5,653 bases of DNA from Candidatus Wukongarchaeum yapensis (GCA_016840425.1 JAEOSI010000155.1:1-5653), one strand, 5' to 3'. Numbered from the stretch's first letter, positions 1 through 5,653 are shown. Numbers and translations are program-made. Notes: generated by a model from the sequence alone, not told the origin.

Positions 1-241
1 CTGTTCCGTGGGGCACTGCTGTAAAAAGAAGGTCTATGGAATCCGCGATCTTGTTTGGTGAATATTTTTCGAAAGGCTCGTCAAAAAGATTTTTCAAGTT
101 CTTGTGGATCATGCTTACAGGTATTCCTTCCTCCGTACGGGAAAAAGCATGAATGGTTTCGACTGAGGGATGAATTTTTAAAATTCTTAAAAGTTCGCCA
201 CCAACATATCCTGTTGCGCCAATAATCCCTACACGAATCAA
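1..241 (-). CDS. argC: N-terminal 80 codons of a second ArgC/LysY-family reductase copy (runs off the window start; not in the ORF track)
   Basis: The reverse complement of 1-241 reads TTG ATT CGT GTA GGG ATT ATT GGC GCA ACA GGA TAT... = MIRVGIIGATGYVGGELLRILKIHPSVE...AVPHGT. It is open throughout and differs from 2715-2955 at 7 of 241 nt by manual alignment. Confidence 0.9.
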   Translation of the reverse strand, partial: MIRVGIIGATGYVGGELLRILKIHPSVETIHAFSRTEEGIPVSMIHKNLKNLFDEPFEKYSPNKIADSIDLLFTAVPHGT

Positions 242-367
242 TGAAAAACAACCTTAAAAACTATGAAAGTTCACAAGAAAATTATAATACGGATATTTTA
301 AAAAATTACTTATATTTTAATTAGTTTTCTTTTTTATGTTCTTTTTTGTGGTGGAGGATTTTTAATT
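242..367. promoter_or_regulatory. Divergent argC / Prx-like promoter region with TATA-like boxes and a GGAGG ribosome-binding site (353-357)
   Basis: Very AT-rich intergenic region between divergent starts (241 minus, 368 plus). It contains ATTATAAT and TTTTAAAA, and GGAGG lies 10 nt before TTG 368. Exact TSSs cannot be determined. Confidence 0.6.
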
Positions 368-802
368 TTGTTAAAAGTTGAGGATCTGGCGCCTGAATTC
401 AGACTCTTAAACAAAGATGAGAAAGAGGTAAAACTTAGTGATTTTAAAGGTAGAAGCGTGGTTTTATTTTTCCTCCATAGTGTTTTCTATCCCCGTTCTA
501 TTACTGAGATTCTAAGTTTTAAGGAAAAATTTGAGGATTTTAAGAAAAAGAACGTAGAAATAATAGGGATTAGCGCTGACACACCTCCCGAACTCAAAAA
601 GTTTTCAGAAGAACACAAAATACCTTTTGAACTATTATCAGACATCAGTGAAGAAGTTGGAAATATATATTGGGTTTATTCTCCGAAATTTGGGTTAAAA
701 AGAAGTACCTTTTTAATAGACGAACAGGGCTACATTACGAAAATTTTCTGGTTAGTTATAAGCCCAAAAAATCATGCTAAAGACTTACTAACATACTTTT
801 AA
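368..802 (+). CDS. Peroxiredoxin (BCP/AhpC-TSA)-like protein lacking all cysteines, copy A
   Basis: Hallmark fold motifs: LKVEDLAPEFRL, VKLSDFKG..VVLFF, EIIGISAD, F.LLSD, RSTFLIDEQG. The PxxxTxxC loop reads HSVFYPRS, and there is no Cys in the 144 aa. Confidence 0.85.
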   Translation: MLKVEDLAPEFRLLNKDEKEVKLSDFKGRSVVLFFLHSVFYPRSITEILSFKEKFEDFKKKNVEIIGISADTPPELKKFSEEHKIPFELLSDISEEVGNIYWVYSPKFGLKRSTFLIDEQGYITKIFWLVISPKNHAKDLLTYF

Positions 803-847
803 CTTATTCGGCGATAAGTTCCCTTGCGAAAGCTGGGAGTAGTTCAC
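803..847 (+). mobile_element. 45-bp minimal IS200/IS605 derivative: left end fused directly to the right-end tail
   Basis: 803-837 matches the left end of the 1855-2053 element (32/35 nt). 838-847 (AGTAGTTCAC) is identical to that element's right terminus. Contains the imperfect hairpin CCCTTGCGAAAGCTGGG. The left boundary (802/803) is inferred. Confidence 0.75.
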
Positions 848-886
848 TCATCCTCCCCCGTTCTCATTTTATTATCTTATTATCTT

Positions 887-1795
887 TCATAGTAAAAATG
901 GGCTAAAAACTACGGCTAAAAATACAACAATCATAGAACTTGAAAGGTTTACTATATCATTATTAAACCATTCTTTTCCCCGTATCAATATGGTTTTTTC
1001 GCCACAATGAACGCGTTTCTCGGTTTTTACTTTACACTTTTTACACTCATAATACCCTTGAATAATTGCCCCTAAAAAACTGTCAATCATCACGCCGAAA
1101 AACCCGATAATTATCACGATAAAAATGGAAAAAATAGCGTTTTCAGGAAAGGATACGGAGGAAGATCTTTTCACAAAAAAATCAACAAGGAAGTATGTCG
1201 AAAATATGAAAAGAGAGGCTGTAAAAGCTGCTATAGTTCCAAGAAGAGATATGCCGCCGCTTGTACCTTTTGAAACCTTTTTCTTCAGGTTAAGGATCCA
1301 CCTTGGGTCTTCTTTAGAAAAAACACCGATTTCTGTAGCCCAAGTATCGCCGGTAACAGTTGAAATAGTTGCCAAGTATCCTAGAACAAAACAGGAACTA
1401 TCTGTTACAAGGAAAAAAGCGGCCATAAGGGTTGCTGCAAAACCGTTTGCTATAACCTGATACTTATCGCGTTTACCCGTTTTCTCAAACTTTTCCGCTA
1501 CTTCTTTCTTCCTTTTTCCTCTCCACTTAGTTAAAGCAGACGAAGATATGAAAAAAGCAATCAAAAGAACCCAAAATACAAAAGCTGCAAGAAAAACGAT
1601 CAAAGAAACAAAAAACGCGACTATAATCGCTTCTTTTTCCAAGCATTCTTTCTTATAAGCAAAAAAACCTATAGGGGCATTCAAAAACGACCCTAAAAGG
1701 ATACCGTATTCAAAACTTCCAACCCAAAACTCCAAAGAAATGTCTCCAGAAAAATAATAATTGAAAAAGAAAAAGTACAAAATACGGGTATCCAC
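887..1795 (-). CDS. DUF92 / TMEM19-family integral membrane protein
   Basis: Family motifs: FFISSSALTK, GKRD..QV.ANG, TVTGDTWATEIG, GTSGGISLLGT, IDSFLGA..Q, N.IVN; multiple hydrophobic segments. The true start may be TTG at 1735, which has GGAGA 7 nt upstream, rather than GTG at 1795. Confidence 0.9.
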   Translation of the reverse strand: MDTRILYFFFFNYYFSGDISLEFWVGSFEYGILLGSFLNAPIGFFAYKKECLEKEAIIVAFFVSLIVFLAAFVFWVLLIAFFISSSALTKWRGKRKKEVAEKFEKTGKRDKYQVIANGFAATLMAAFFLVTDSSCFVLGYLATISTVTGDTWATEIGVFSKEDPRWILNLKKKVSKGTSGGISLLGTIAAFTASLFIFSTYFLVDFFVKRSSSVSFPENAIFSIFIVIIIGFFGVMIDSFLGAIIQGYYECKKCKVKTEKRVHCGEKTILIRGKEWFNNDIVNLSSSMIVVFLAVVFSPFLL

Positions 1796-1834
1796 ACAGT
1801 AATTTTAAAGATATTAATCTTCAAATAAGCTCTA

Positions 1835-1960
1835 AATCAAAGAAATAGGAGTAAGTGAACTACTTCCAGCCTTCGCAGGGAGCTTCCTATTTCAACGACG
1901 GGATCATCATTATTCAGCCATCTCCACAGGCGTAAATTCGGACAGTCCCTGTCCTACTCT
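1835..1960 (-). ncRNA. Putative TnpB omega/reRNA: ~105-nt scaffold plus ~20-nt flank-derived guide TTACTCCTATTTCTTTGATT
   Basis: TnpB reRNAs overlap the tnpB 3' end and right end, with the guide taken from the right flank (established). Seen here: stem GGACAG-GGA-CTGTCC (1954-1940), ACGCCTGTGGAG, TTGAAATAGGAAGC, a terminal hairpin and TCAC. The TSS and guide length are inferred. Confidence 0.6.
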
Positions 1961-2053
1961 TCTATAGTGTTATTCTTATGACTATAAATAGTTGATTATT
2001 ATTGTTCGGCTTTCATCGCCCAGCTTTCGCAAGGGGACTTCTCGCCGAAGAAG
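1855..2053 (-). mobile_element. 199-bp non-autonomous IS200/IS605 (tnpB-type) element, PATE-like
   Basis: On the minus strand: left-end hairpin CCCTTGCGAAAGCTGGG, with an outer TTCGGC/GCCGAA stem; a TnpB C-terminal remnant VGQGLSEFTPVEM (1957-1919); and right end GAAG-CTCCCTGCGAAGGCTGGAAG-TAGT-TCAC. GAAG/TCAC fits the IS608 guide/cleavage pairing pattern (GAAT/TCAA). No tnpA or tnpB ORF. Confidence 0.85.
1983..1990 (-). promoter_or_regulatory. TATA-like box (TATTTATA) upstream of the omegaRNA scaffold
   Basis: Matches the archaeal TTTA(A/T)A consensus and lies about 25-30 nt upstream of the first scaffold stem. Confidence 0.45.
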
Positions 2054-2512
2054 TTAAAAGTATGTTAGTAAGTCTTTAGCATGATTTTTTGGGCTTATAA
2101 CTAACCAGAAAATTTTCGTAATGTAGCCCTGTTCGTTTATTAAAAAGGTACTTCTTTTTAACCCAAATTTCGGAGAATAAACCCAATATATATTTCCAAC
2201 TTCTTCATTGATGTCTGATAATAGTTCAAAAGGTATTTTGTGTTCTTCTGAAAACTTTTTGAGTTCGGGAGGTGTATCAGCGCTAATCCCTATTATTTCT
2301 ACGTTCTTTTTCTTAAAATCCTCAAATTTTTCCTTAAAACTTAGAATCTCAGTAATAGAACGGGGATAGAAAACACTATGGAGGAAAAATAAAACCACGC
2401 TTCTACCTTTAAAATCACCAAGTTTTACCTCTTTCTCATCTTTGTTTAAGAGTCTGAATTCAGGCGCCAGATCCTCAACTTTTAACAAAGAACTCATTTC
2501 AAAACTCTCCAT
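2054..2512 (-). CDS. Cys-free peroxiredoxin-like protein, copy B, with a MITE-derived N-terminal extension
   Basis: 2054-2488 differs from copy A at 4 of 435 nt (S->G, S->N, D->N and one synonymous). Possible starts are ATG 2512, ATG 2497 (both inside the MITE) or the ancestral TTG 2488. Confidence 0.85.
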   Translation of the reverse strand: MESFEMSSLLKVEDLAPEFRLLNKDEKEVKLGDFKGRSVVLFFLHSVFYPRSITEILSFKEKFEDFKKKNVEIIGISADTPPELKKFSEEHKIPFELLSDINEEVGNIYWVYSPKFGLKRSTFLINEQGYITKIFWLVISPKNHAKDLLTYF

Positions 2513-2587
2513 AGGACGGGGGTTACATACTGGCTAAACTTTATAATAGTATGAAGGTTGTGCTTACAAAAGTTTTGAAATGACTTC
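2490..2587. mobile_element. ~98-bp MITE with 17-bp terminal inverted repeats and a 3-4 bp target duplication
   Basis: TIRs GAACTCATTTCAAAACT (2490-2506) and AGTTTTGAAATGACTTC (2571-2587), one mismatch. Arm A gives the empty site. The TSD is AAA (98-bp element) or CAAA (97-bp element, 2490-2586). No ORF; parent IS family not assignable. Confidence 0.85.
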
Positions 2588-2590
2588 AAA

Positions 2591-2714
2591 ATTAAAAATC
2601 CTCCACCACAAAAAAGAACATAAAAAGAAAACTAATTAAAATATAAGTAATTTTTTAAAATATCCGTATTATAATTTTCTTGTGAACTTTCATAGTTTTT
2701 AAGGTTGTTTTTCA
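2591..2714. promoter_or_regulatory. Arm B copy of the divergent promoter region
   Basis: Identical to the reverse complement of the arm A intergenic region except for a 1-nt indel in an A/T run. Confidence 0.6.
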
Positions 2715-3797
2715 TTGGTTCGTGTAGGGATTATTGGCGCAACAGGGTATGTTGGTGGCGAACTTTTAAGGATTTTAAAAATTCATCCCTCAGTCGAAAC
2801 CATTCACGCTTTTTCCCGTAAGGAGGAAGGAAGACCTGTAAGCATGATCCACAAGAACTTGAAAAATCTTTTTGACGAGCCTTTCGAAAAATATTCACCA
2901 AACAAGATCGCAGATTCCATAGACCTTCTTTTTACAGCAGTGCCCCACGGAACAGCCATGGAAATCGTTCCAGAAATCTTAGAGATGGGTATTAATGTTA
3001 TAGATATGAGCGCAGACTACCGCTTACCACCGGAAAAGTTTGAGGAATGGTACGGTATAAAGCACAAACCCCTCTCCTCAAAGTTTACCCCTGTCTACGG
3101 TCTTCCAGAAATATATAGGAAAGAGATAAAAAAAACTAAAACGGTAGCTGTACCCGGTTGTTATGCTACCGGAGCCATCCTTGCCACACTACCCCTTGTA
3201 AGAAATCACGCAGTTCACCCTCAAAAGATAGTGATCACAGCTATTTCAGGCACTTCAGGAGCAGGCTCAAGACCTTCCGAATTTCTCCACCACCCCGAAG
3301 TTTACAATAACGCAAAACCTTACAGTGTAATGTCCCACAGACACATACCAGAAATAGAAACCGTGCTAAGTGATGTCTCAAAGGAAGATGTGAAAATAGG
3401 ATTTGTACCTATATTAGTTCCCATGGTAAGGGGAATCTTAACGGTGGTTAATGTTTTTCCCTTAAAGGAACAAGAGGGAAACAGTTTCTTAGAAATGTAT
3501 CAAGACTATTACAGTCAGGAACCTTTTATTCGCCTCATAATCGAGGAAGAAAAAACGGTAGACGGATCAATGAAGAGGAAGGTTGGCGGCTTCCCCTACA
3601 CCGCAAACGTTATCGGTACAAACTTCTGCGACATATCTTTAAAAAATGATGAAAGAACAAGCCAAACAGCGGTCATATCCGCAATAGACAACCTAGTTAA
3701 AGGCGCAGCAGGTCAAGCGGTTCAATGCATGAACATCATGCTAAACATGAAAGAAACAGAAGGTCTTAACAAACTTGTAGGCGCCCACCCATGGTGA
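2715..3797 (+). CDS. argC: N-acetyl-gamma-glutamyl-phosphate reductase / LysY-type reductase (ArgC family)
   Basis: GATGYVGGEL Rossmann motif, AVPHG, IDMSADYRL, VYGLPE, catalytic PGCY, SGAG, HRH.PEI, RGIL, IDNLVKGAAGQAVQCMN. ArgC cannot be separated from LysW-dependent LysY by eye. Confidence 0.92.
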   Translation: MVRVGIIGATGYVGGELLRILKIHPSVETIHAFSRKEEGRPVSMIHKNLKNLFDEPFEKYSPNKIADSIDLLFTAVPHGTAMEIVPEILEMGINVIDMSADYRLPPEKFEEWYGIKHKPLSSKFTPVYGLPEIYRKEIKKTKTVAVPGCYATGAILATLPLVRNHAVHPQKIVITAISGTSGAGSRPSEFLHHPEVYNNAKPYSVMSHRHIPEIETVLSDVSKEDVKIGFVPILVPMVRGILTVVNVFPLKEQEGNSFLEMYQDYYSQEPFIRLIIEEEKTVDGSMKRKVGGFPYTANVIGTNFCDISLKNDERTSQTAVISAIDNLVKGAAGQAVQCMNIMLNMKETEGLNKLVGAHPW

Positions 3798-3842
3798 AAA
3801 CCCCAAAAAGTTTTCCCATATTTTACTATTTTCGAGGTATAA

Positions 3843-4205
3843 TTGATGGAGTTAGTGCACGAATCTGAGGTTGAAAAGGGCGGTAGGGTTTCAAAATGGC
3901 TTATCGTCCCAAAAGTTAGAACCTCTTCAAAAACTATTGAACTAGGCGTGGCCACATTAAAACCTGGCCAAGTTGAAGTCCTTCATAAACACGTTAAAAC
4001 CGAGGAAGCCTTCTACGTGATAAGCGGAACACCATCTTTTCAGGTGGATGATGAAGTGAAACAGCTTAAGGAGGGCACTGCCCTATACGTCCCTCCAAAC
4101 ACTCCTCACAGGATAGCAAACCACAGCGATAAAGAGTGCAAGATCATCGTGGTAAAAACGCCTTCTAATCCGGAAGATAAAATCATTCTCTCCGACAAAT
4201 CATAA
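3843..4205 (+). CDS. Cupin-domain (Cupin_2-like) protein
   Basis: Motif 1 PG....HKH...EEAFYVISG and motif 2 G...YVPPNTPHRI.N. GAGGT at 3834-3838 precedes TTG 3843 / ATG 3846. Probably co-transcribed with argC. Confidence 0.88.
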   Translation: MMELVHESEVEKGGRVSKWLIVPKVRTSSKTIELGVATLKPGQVEVLHKHVKTEEAFYVISGTPSFQVDDEVKQLKEGTALYVPPNTPHRIANHSDKECKIIVVKTPSNPEDKIILSDKS

Positions 4206-4249
4206 AAAAATCATTTTAAGTATAGCTCTTTGATTTTTTTTATTTTTTT
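4204..4249. terminator. Overlapping oligo-T tracts at the convergent cupin / methyltransferase junction
   Basis: T7 on the minus strand (4210-4204) directly follows the TGA at 4211. T8-A-T7 on the plus strand (4234-4249) lies ~30 nt after the cupin stop. No hairpin. Function inferred from archaeal termination rules. Confidence 0.4.
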
Positions 4250-5089
4250 AATTCCTCCAAGGTTTAGGATTTCTTTTAACTTATCAAGGTAGAATTTTTC
4301 GGTTTCTTCATCATACTCCACATTTCTACTTGCAGGGTTCCAGATCACTGTGTCTAAACCTTTTTCCATGCCTATTTTTAAGAACGCTTTTTGTAGGGGG
4401 ATTTTAATATCCCTACCTATATCTTCTTTAGAGGGTAGACCTTTCGTTAAATTTGTTAAACCTACCATTAGATGCATCCTGTTCATTTGCGGACTCTTTT
4501 TAATTTTCTCCATTGTTTCTAAAACCACATTAACCATTCCTTCTTCATCCACCGCTAAAGGGTATAAACCAAGGTCTGCGAAAAGTTCTTCGGGTTCAAA
4601 ACCGTATCTTACCGCTTTTATGAAGAGCCTTTTCGCCGTTTCATAAAGTTCCTCTGTGGATATATTAGGTTTAAGAGATCCGCCCTGAAACCTCTCCGAA
4701 ATAAGGAGCACAACACAACAATCTTTCCTTCTTTTAAGCGAAAAAACAGAAGAGGCTCTAACTTCAGTAGCGGAATTTAAAAGAGGAGGCATACCCCCTC
4801 CAATATCTAAATCATAAGCCTCCAAGCCAGCTTTTAACTTAAAAGGATCACCACTATCAATACACAAAGGCTTATCAACAACTTCCTGAACAGCCTTCAC
4901 AGCCTCCTCCATAACCTCTACAGGTAATAGTCCTACATTCACATTAATGTAGTCTGCCCCCTCTTCTGCCTGTTCTAAAGCAATCCTTTTAATCTCTTCA
5001 AAATCACGCTTTTCAAGGAGACCGCGAACAAATTTCGAAAAATAATTAATGCTTCCGCCGATAACAATCAAATTTTTCTTCAAAACCAT
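4211..5089 (-). CDS. Pterin-binding TIM-barrel protein, AcsE / MetH-folate-domain-like methyltransferase (dihydropteroate synthase-like fold)
   Basis: Matches the AcsE pattern: IGGSIN, A.EQ.EEGADYINVNVG, PLCIDS, LLNS, LFAD, MVGLTN, AFL...ME.GLD..I. GAGGA RBS lies 6 nt upstream of the ATG. Confidence 0.8.
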   Translation of the reverse strand: MVLKKNLIVIGGSINYFSKFVRGLLEKRDFEEIKRIALEQAEEGADYINVNVGLLPVEVMEEAVKAVQEVVDKPLCIDSGDPFKLKAGLEAYDLDIGGGMPPLLNSATEVRASSVFSLKRRKDCCVVLLISERFQGGSLKPNISTEELYETAKRLFIKAVRYGFEPEELFADLGLYPLAVDEEGMVNVVLETMEKIKKSPQMNRMHLMVGLTNLTKGLPSKEDIGRDIKIPLQKAFLKIGMEKGLDTVIWNPASRNVEYDEETEKFYLDKLKEILNLGGIKKIKKIKELYLK

Positions 5090-5137
5090 AAAAGAATCCT
5101 CTCTAAAAAACCAAAAAACACGCCTAAAACTGTTTTT

Positions 5138-5653
5138 TTATTCTCCTATATTGATCTTCGTTTTTAGGAGTTTTCCTCCGCACAGCGGGCAAAGTTTTTC
5201 TCCACGAACGGTAACGATTCTACACCTTGGGCAATAGTCTCGCTCGATAAACTTTGATCCTTTAGAGATAAAAGGGGCTACTTGTTCTACTATACTTCCT
5301 TTTACTTCTTTCATTCTTTGGCGTTCTAGCTTCTCCTTATAGCCCAAGGTCATAAGGTGCCATCCTTCTAAAACCGCATCCCCAAGTAATTCATTTTCAA
5401 GGAAGAGGCTTAAAATGTTAGTTAAAACGAAGGGATCTTCACCTCTTTTTTCCGCTTCTTCTGAAAGGTCTATAATACCCTTGCTTTCTAAAAGCTCTTT
5501 TATCTCATCTGCAAGGGGCTTTTTCAACTTTTTAACAATCTCTTTAATATGAGAAAAACCGTGTTTTCGAGCAATCTGGTTCAAAGCCATCTGGGTTCTT
5601 ATAGCGATAACCCTATCCCCCCTAGACTGAAGCTTTATAAGAGGCTCAATAGC
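5138..5653 (-). CDS. Hypothetical protein with a HEAT-like segment and C-terminal CxxC-CxxC zinc ribbon; 5'-truncated by the window end
   Basis: The frame stays open from 5653 (AIEPLIKLQSRGDRVIAIRTQMALNQIA), so ATG 5590 is probably internal. AIEPLI...ALNQI resembles HEAT/PBS repeats. C-terminal CPRC-x10-CPLC. Confidence 0.7.
   Translation of the reverse strand, partial: AIEPLIKLQSRGDRVIAIRTQMALNQIARKHGFSHIKEIVKKLKKPLADEIKELLESKGIIDLSEEAEKRGEDPFVLTNILSLFLENELLGDAVLEGWHLMTLGYKEKLERQRMKEVKGSIVEQVAPFISKGSKFIERDYCPRCRIVTVRGEKLCPLCGGKLLKTKINIGE

Follow-up and report, generated by a model that had tools for sequence, protein, structure and literature searches.

A 1-kb inversion polymorphism beside an IS200/IS605 mini-element as the probable source of an inverted repeat on a Candidatus Wukongarchaeum yapensis contig

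Protein-free derivatives of IS200/IS605 transposons, or PATEs, have been described from Haloquadratum and Natronomonas; strain-specific 'terminal-only' versions arise there through repeat-mediated core deletion, for example from a 1500-bp transposon to a 52-bp PATE, and the two strains compared showed no genome rearrangements (PMC3119063). Mini-elements of this kind border the inverted repeat considered here, which lies on contig C160 of the Candidatus Wukongarchaeum yapensis bin (GCA_016840425.1 JAEOSI010000155.1:1-5653). The entire contig, 5,653 bp, was analysed and is hereafter the window. On it, argC and a peroxiredoxin gene (Prx) appear twice in mirror image around a single DUF92 gene. 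The contig is best read, with a probability of roughly 0.85, as a chimera assembled from two haplotypes distinguished by a 1-kb inversion, the two arms of the repeat being alleles and not paralogues. The inversion polymorphism of the 1-kb DUF92 segment in the population is real, and most likely no genome holds the duplication, the absence of which is shown indirectly and without single-molecule proof.

The elements resemble the described PATEs in having no terminal inverted repeats, no target duplication, putative near-terminal hairpins and a conserved terminal oligonucleotide, in sharing their ends with tnpB-bearing elements and in having terminal-only versions (here 199 vs 45 nt). They differ in their target, TTTAA, and in that one copy marks an inversion breakpoint, which is unreported in the PATE study. 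As an assembly, the contig is like the chimeras of strain-mixed bins, in which a shared interior too long to phase brings junctions of different haplotypes into one contig; it differs in its unusually neat palindrome, which arises because the shared piece is itself inverted between strains. Two further systems are close. Inversions made by homologous recombination between insertion sequences also have a mobile element at the breakpoint, but they need one at both breakpoints, whereas here the U-side junctions have none and the break lies at the element's very tip. In IS608/ISDra2-type transposition, the Y1 (HUH) transposase TnpA makes its left-end cut 3' of a short target motif and its right-end cut at the exact terminus, and IS608-type Y1 enzymes normally complete strand transfer by linking the right-end 3'-OH to the DNA that comes after the target motif. 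The junction GTTCAC/TTAC of the window (a slash marks a break or join) has this right-end-to-post-target form, but here the target would be some 1 kb distant and on the opposite strand, an inversion results and the reciprocal junction is inexact.

Haplotype 1 (H1) would carry, in the ancestral order, a gene designated U, DUF92 forward, a 45-nt element, Prx(A) reverse and argC(A), while haplotype 2 (H2) would carry U, DUF92 reversed, a 199-nt element, Prx(B) with a 101-nt insert and argC(B). The features of the window are as follows, with the same-genus relative G001 and contig C122 of the same bin serving for comparison.

2-241, minus strand: argC 5' fragment of haplotype 1, truncated after 80 codons where the contig ends (Pfam PF01118, E 3e-18)
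368-802, plus strand: peroxiredoxin (AhpC/TSA), Prx(A), haplotype-1 allele (Pfam PF00578, E 4e-31)
803-847, plus strand: 45-nt terminal-only IS200/IS605 mini-element, its left-end hairpin fused to the right end ...AGTAGTTCAC (alignment)
848-1854, no strand: 1-kb segment occurring in both orientations in the population (junction evidence)
851-1145, no strand: DUF92 3' stretch with a second version on C122, 96% identical and joined there to U, not to Prx (bin contig comparison)
887-1795, minus strand: DUF92 gene (Pfam PF01940, E 1e-64)
1855-2053, minus strand: full 199-nt protein-free IS200/IS605 mini-element (PATE), right end facing DUF92
2054-2512, minus strand: peroxiredoxin, Prx(B), haplotype-2 allele, its ATG supplied by the 101-nt insert (Pfam and arm alignment)
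2486-2586, no strand: 101-nt miniature element with terminal inverted repeats, in arm B only (repeat search and alignment)
2715-3797, plus strand: full-length argC, normal continuation of the locus (Pfam; collinear with G001 and JGI contigs)
3843-4205, plus strand: cupin (Pfam)
4211-5089, minus strand: pterin-binding-type gene (Pfam)

The mirror-image repeat sets positions 1-847 (arm A) against 1855-2955 (arm B). Identity, measured with a repeat tool, MAFFT and BLAST, is 97.8% for 1-370 against 2955-2587 and 98.5% for 367-837 against 2489-2019, far beyond chance, and the divergence of the arms is 1.5-2.2%. A first-pass annotation, made from the sequence alone, had described reverse-complement arms with 7 substitutions in argC, 4 in Prx and 3 in the element left end, and alignment reproduced every count (positions 44, 123, 135, 149, 185, 209 and 238; 437, 580, 648 and 719; and 806, 815 and 820, respectively). 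A 1-nt indel at 330 also separates the arms, and two blocks occur in arm B only, one of 101 nt (about 2486-2586) and one of 154 nt that forms the element's core. The same annotation had homology stopping at the right ends on both sides and DUF92 as the sole gene of the spacer 848-1854; both were confirmed, the former at 847 and 1855, where each arm ends inward-facing in ...AGTAGTTCAC, and the latter by Pfam. Its description of a 'multi-kb' duplication, with arm A given as 1-847, stood in part: the repeat is real, the arms measure 0.85 kb (A) and 1.1 kb (B), so that multi-kb applies only to the whole structure, and arm A 'ends' at position 1 because the contig stops there, 43 nt past the last distinguishing single-nucleotide polymorphism (SNP). 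The argC fragment of arm A is 95% identical in protein to the full argC. The stop codon of Prx(A) lies within a TTTAA target (798-802), and the left end of the 199-nt element abuts the TTTAA at 2054-2058 on the minus strand, which is the stop of Prx(B).

Relatives carry this locus once. The order in G001 is U (coiled-coil), DUF92 forward, Prx reverse, argC forward and cupin, with each gene present once; Prx and DUF92 converge there, and Prx(A) is collinear with this arrangement. The G001 stretch is collinear with window 1763..1, that is DUF92 plus arm A, and equally with 2054-5653, that is arm B onward. A JGI metagenome contig from a more distant relative, L034 (DUF92 identity 78%), has the same single-copy order in full, and a further JGI contig, L038 (DUF92 identity 83%), ends inside DUF92, so that the single-copy order U, DUF92, Prx, argC was found in 3 relatives, one of them displaying its U-DUF92 part only. 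Both arms thus map to one ancestral locus, and arm A plus DUF92 is the ancestral arrangement.

Junctions of both orientations of DUF92 were found. Logan contigs of three public runs (X1, X2 and X3) were mapped to window 780-5653, a reference chosen to exclude the long inverted repeat, so that arm-A reads appear as variants or joints on arm B; these contigs were built at k = 31, the depths given below are contig k-mer depths and rough, and X1 and X2 look nearly identical. On C122, U is joined directly to the DUF92 3' end, with DUF92 reversed and the contig stopping inside it (C122 1-294 matches window 1145..851 at 96% identity), and JGI contig L039 repeats this junction at 99.4% identity. The 67-nt sequence of this junction in C122 also matched X1, X2, X3 and X25 in a word search, at just 3 sampled words, too few to count as evidence. 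A second JGI contig, L035, corresponds to window 5653..1059 at 99.65% and carries argC, Prx(B), the 199-nt element and the 5' part of DUF92. Together these three contigs appear to describe H2, in which only the DUF92 segment would be inverted between U and Prx. The other orientation is seen in all three runs as loose ends at 1849 and 1854, where the DUF92 5' flank continues into letters matching the U flank of C122 at 29/30; judged by these letters, they are the ancestral junction of U with the DUF92 5' side in this species, in two variants. In X3, one contig leads from the DUF92 3' flank across the 45-nt element and into Prx (joint 807<->2050, opposite strands) at a depth of 8.5, which is the entire Prx depth in that run. 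The junction of the DUF92 5' side with the 199-nt element (1820-1901) has a depth of 15 in X1 and 13 in X2, and the C122-type DUF92 3' allele (1-nt deletion at 882) has a depth of 15 in each of the two. Each of the four junctions expected for two orientations was thus seen in at least two assemblies.

A true palindromic duplication would place the arms at double depth, and the k-mer depths of X1-X3 do not show this. Depths in X3 are close to 1:1, with DUF92 at 7.7-9.7, Prx at 8.5 and argC and beyond at 10.1. In X1 and X2 the 199-nt junction (15, 13) matches the C122-type DUF92 3' allele (15, 15) and leaves no excess for a palindrome. The arm-A letters segregate as alleles of a single full-length argC-Prx locus: X1 and X2 show no letters but 2419T and 2771A at these sites, in contigs extending across the whole of argC, and over the piece 2737-2863 in X3 the depth of the arm-A type (4.0) and that of the other type (5.2) add up to a single copy. 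Polymorphism in all three runs is also seen for the 101-nt insert, present at depths of 13, 12 and 3 and skipped at 16, 16 and 5.4 (X1, X2 and X3).

The bin (277 contigs, 2.16 Mb, 92% complete, 3.3% contamination, 38% GC) is a mosaic of several closely related strains, because about 44 pairs of contig ends in the bin self-comparison overlap at 93-98.7% identity over 265-1983 bp (for example C79/C261, C225/C230, C129/C264 and C112/C177). The divergence of the two arms falls inside this bin-wide range, and C160 is the only contig of the bin that overlaps itself in reverse. Since the DUF92 interior (about 1146-1790) is nearly identical in H1 and H2, the assembler would have entered it from argC(A) of H1 and left through the H2 junction to Prx(B), writing a single argC-Prx locus twice in opposite directions and turning strain SNPs and indels into 'arm differences'. 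The remaining H2 branch would have become the end of C122, and the H1 branch joining U to the DUF92 5' side would have been too short for the 2-kb contig cut-off (smallest contig 2,009 bp).

Several observations weigh against this reading. The phasing is indirect, no single read or molecule having been seen to span U, DUF92 and Prx; a raw-read run, X21, contained no reads of this organism. The k = 31 contigs of the public runs break inside the repeated element, and therefore only the bin and the JGI contig, both of them short-read assemblies, carry the link through the 199-nt element. The public runs may be the source samples of the bin, in which case the assemblers are independent and the samples perhaps are not. 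In X1 and X2 the Prx-argC depth is 19.5-27, or 1.3-1.7 times the DUF92 depth of 14.6-17; the excess is ascribed to further strains and noisy k-mer depths, and a minority palindrome could also produce it. Finally, DUF92 alleles do not strictly track orientation, and therefore more than two strains are present.

The mini-elements were characterized across the bin. The family of the 199-nt element has at least nine copies of 199-212 nt at 83-95% identity, plus variants from 275 to about 1350 nt. In all full copies TTTAA precedes the left end and GTTCAC ends the right end (...AGTAGTTCAC), the flanks are unrelated, and there are neither terminal inverted repeats nor target-site duplications, as for PATEs. 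G001 has an empty site, TTTTAA/TCATCC, beside Prx. Homology to tnpB surroundings is extensive: among 31 tnpB matches in the bin, the right part of the element is homologous to the DNA just 3' of many, with element positions 90-199 aligning at 70-75% to the DNA directly after the tnpB zinc-ribbon end on C134, C205, C143, C109, C125 and C239, and shorter stretches aligning at 89-97% after the tnpB genes of C54, C59, C137 and C180. A 1351-nt copy on C97 has the same ends, and the family shares its ends with tnpB-bearing elements of this genome. Similar CCC..loop..GGG motifs are visible by eye near both ends; DNA folding gives an 8-bp left-end hairpin with weak z-scores (-0.1 to -1.6), and the right-end stem is degraded in the arm-B copy (GGGAG to GGAAG). 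Because of the TTTAA/GTTCAC ends, the tnpB-flank homology and the empty site in G001, both the 199-nt and the 45-nt elements are assigned to the protein-free IS200/IS605 derivatives, the 45-nt element being a core-deleted version. A second 45-nt terminal-only copy follows a TTTAA on C104 (5105-5149); this recurring form may itself be mobile, by analogy with the 52-bp Haloquadratum PATE. That the 45-nt element is a misassembly from k-mer collapse was rejected, since at the fusion point only about 6 nt are common to it and the full element, and the second copy exists. The bin's only tnpA (Y1) genes lie in a tnpA-tnpB element (C70:7460-8568 and C117:8440-9990), one intact Y1_Tnp gene on C70 (E 1e-40) and one fragment on C117; the left end of this element follows TTAC, and its hairpins differ from those of the TTTAA/GTTCAC family. 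A cognate Y1 transposase for the TTTAA/GTTCAC family was not found in the bin, which is 92% complete.

The breakpoints of the inversion coincide with the motifs of this family. Read from U, H1 runs ...TTTAA TTAC TCCTATTTC, DUF92, ...GGAGGA TGA/GTGAAC (right end, reverse), and H2 runs ...TTTAA TTAC TCCTCCC, DUF92 reversed, ...ATAGGA GTAA/GTGAAC. The edge letters of the 1-kb segment in the window are TCA (848-850) and GTAA (1851-1854). The Prx-side break lies exactly at the right-end terminus of the element (GTTCAC/) in both states, and the other break lies at TTTAA/TTAC, the family target motif, on the opposite strand, so that the H2 right end continues into TTACTCC, which in H1 stands after a TTTAA on the opposite strand. 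The joint chance of both breaks falling on these motifs is estimated, roughly, at 1e-4 to 1e-3. A Y1 transposase would cut or join at GTTCAC/ and TTTAA/, and the other junction would be closed by repair. The first-pass annotation had proposed right-end cleavage, or recombination between mini-elements, as the cause of the structure; a real rearrangement does have one of its breakpoints exactly at the right end, and the palindromic duplication that this was to explain is not supported. Two findings speak against a transposase. The junction of U with the DUF92 3' side is not an exact reciprocal, TTTAA/TCATCC being expected and TTTAATTAC/TCCTCC seen, and the ends of the one intact tnpA element detected in the bin are different. 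TTAC is duplicated and so stands at both H2 junctions, while TCA has been lost and TCCT is common to the two sides, and these letters point to closure of the second strand by staggered breaks or microhomology repair.

Involvement of a transposase in the inversion is thus a tentative proposal, held at somewhat below even odds. The specific version, in which a Y1 transposase itself made the inversion by joining the right end of the mini-element to opposite-strand DNA after TTTAA with no second copy and the polymorphism then persisted, is unlikely, if well worth keeping in view. Literature searches for inversions made by Y1 transposases in the IS200/IS605 family found none. The strongest rival concerns this mechanism only: the inversion and the chimera would both be real, with the inversion made by template switching or microhomology end joining and the match to the motifs a matter of chance. 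This is a serious contender that we nevertheless place a little short of an even chance. The 4-nt microhomology (TCCT/AGGA) at one junction, junction letters that are not exact reciprocal transposase products and the failure to find in the bin a cognate tnpA with these ends all favor it, while the placement of the breaks does not, one falling exactly at the element terminus, 1 among about 85-240 intergenic positions, and the other immediately 3' of a TTTAA, of which a spacer of about 130 nt holds about two.

A real palindromic duplication in one genome, in which the right end was joined to the opposite strand and argC-Prx lies twice around DUF92, as the first-pass annotation had it, is very improbable. 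The contig itself displays the structure, GTTCAC/TTAC is the expected right-end transfer 3' of TTTAA and, by reasoning, would once copied give exactly such a palindrome, and the 1.3-1.7-fold depth of Prx-argC over DUF92 in X1 and X2 is in the right direction. Against it stand both junctions of U with DUF92, the 1:1 depth of X3 and the two equally deep H2 markers of X1 and X2; the twofold arm depth that the suggested comparison of arms with DUF92 would have revealed was not seen. Fresh arms would be identical, yet these differ by the 154-nt core deletion, the 101-nt insertion and about 2% SNPs that segregate as alleles, and arm A stops just beyond its last distinguishing SNP in a bin with some 44 strain overlaps. 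The duplication of argC-Prx is further contradicted by relatives that carry a single locus with which both arms are collinear. Other parts of that annotation fared better: it was right that the contig is not a simple read fold-back chimera, and its IS200/IS605-type ends are genuine, with insertion at TTTAA without target duplication and homology to tnpB flanks. It had also outlined a misassembly in which arm SNPs segregate as two strains and nothing links DUF92 through the 199-nt element to Prx(B); the arm SNPs do segregate as strains, and the link does exist.

Even less credence is given to the DUF92 segment as an inverton that a site-specific recombinase actively flips within cells. In its favor, the same samples contain both orientations, one DUF92 sequence type in X1 seems to feed junctions of both orientations, and an 8-bp inverted repeat, TTACTCCT, lies at both H2 junctions. 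However, H1 lacks a matching repeat, with TCATCCT on the Prx side, and Pfam detected no recombinase domain in any open reading frame of the window; the combination expected of an inverton, matching repeats in both states and an invertase gene nearby, was therefore not found. The two states also differ in junction letters (TCA vs TTAC), element size and flanking SNPs, which separate lineages fit better. Conceivably, the junction of the right end with TTAC reflects no more than a PATE that had inserted on the upstream side of an ancestrally oriented DUF92 and was mis-joined to Prx through the repeat; the element-free junction of U with the DUF92 3' end nevertheless shows a rearrangement to be real. 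Homologous recombination between two inverted PATE or IS copies was rejected on the U-side junctions, which are without an element in both orientations, and off-target cutting by TnpB, expected 15-21 nt from the motif, was rejected with breaks 0-4 nt from the motifs and a would-be guide flank that does not match the U-side site.

Several features lie outside these arguments. Gene U (C122 366-929), the conserved neighbor of DUF92, has a 187-aa product that is Pro/Ala/Gln-rich in its middle and coiled-coil-like at its C-terminus, and that has no Pfam match. The 101-nt element upstream of Prx(B) is bounded by terminal inverted repeats of 17-27 nt, with TTT(G) as its likely target duplication; its new ATG lengthens Prx by 8 codons, and elements of about 870 bp with matching ends lie on C196 and C223. 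Near DUF92, Prx and argC-5' the variant density is 2-3%, and at the DUF92 3' end it is 4%; further right (2956-5653), the density between bin, JGI contig and public runs is only about 0.2-0.3%, and L035 carries N at four polymorphic sites (5441, 5507, 5539 and 5624). The cupin between argC and the pterin-binding-type gene is missing in L034 (3711-3719 vs window 3808-4221). An Rfam search of the window gave no meaningful match, and exact-protein look-ups for DUF92, Prx(A) and Prx(B) found no record.

Reading C160 as a chimera over an inversion polymorphism carries a caution for this bin: what looks like a repeat, a 'duplication' or an odd junction on one of its contigs may be a haplotype artefact. 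What remains as real is modest, a population-level inversion whose breakpoints coincide with the site of cleavage and with the target motif used by a family of single-strand transposons. H2 makes Prx, the element (reading outward from its right end) and DUF92 co-directional, whereas in H1 DUF92 is convergent with Prx; speculatively, DUF92 in this position, downstream of Prx and of the outward-reading guide-RNA unit of the element, could change in expression. Should the inversion have been made by a transposase, it would represent a type of rearrangement for which no description was found in this family.

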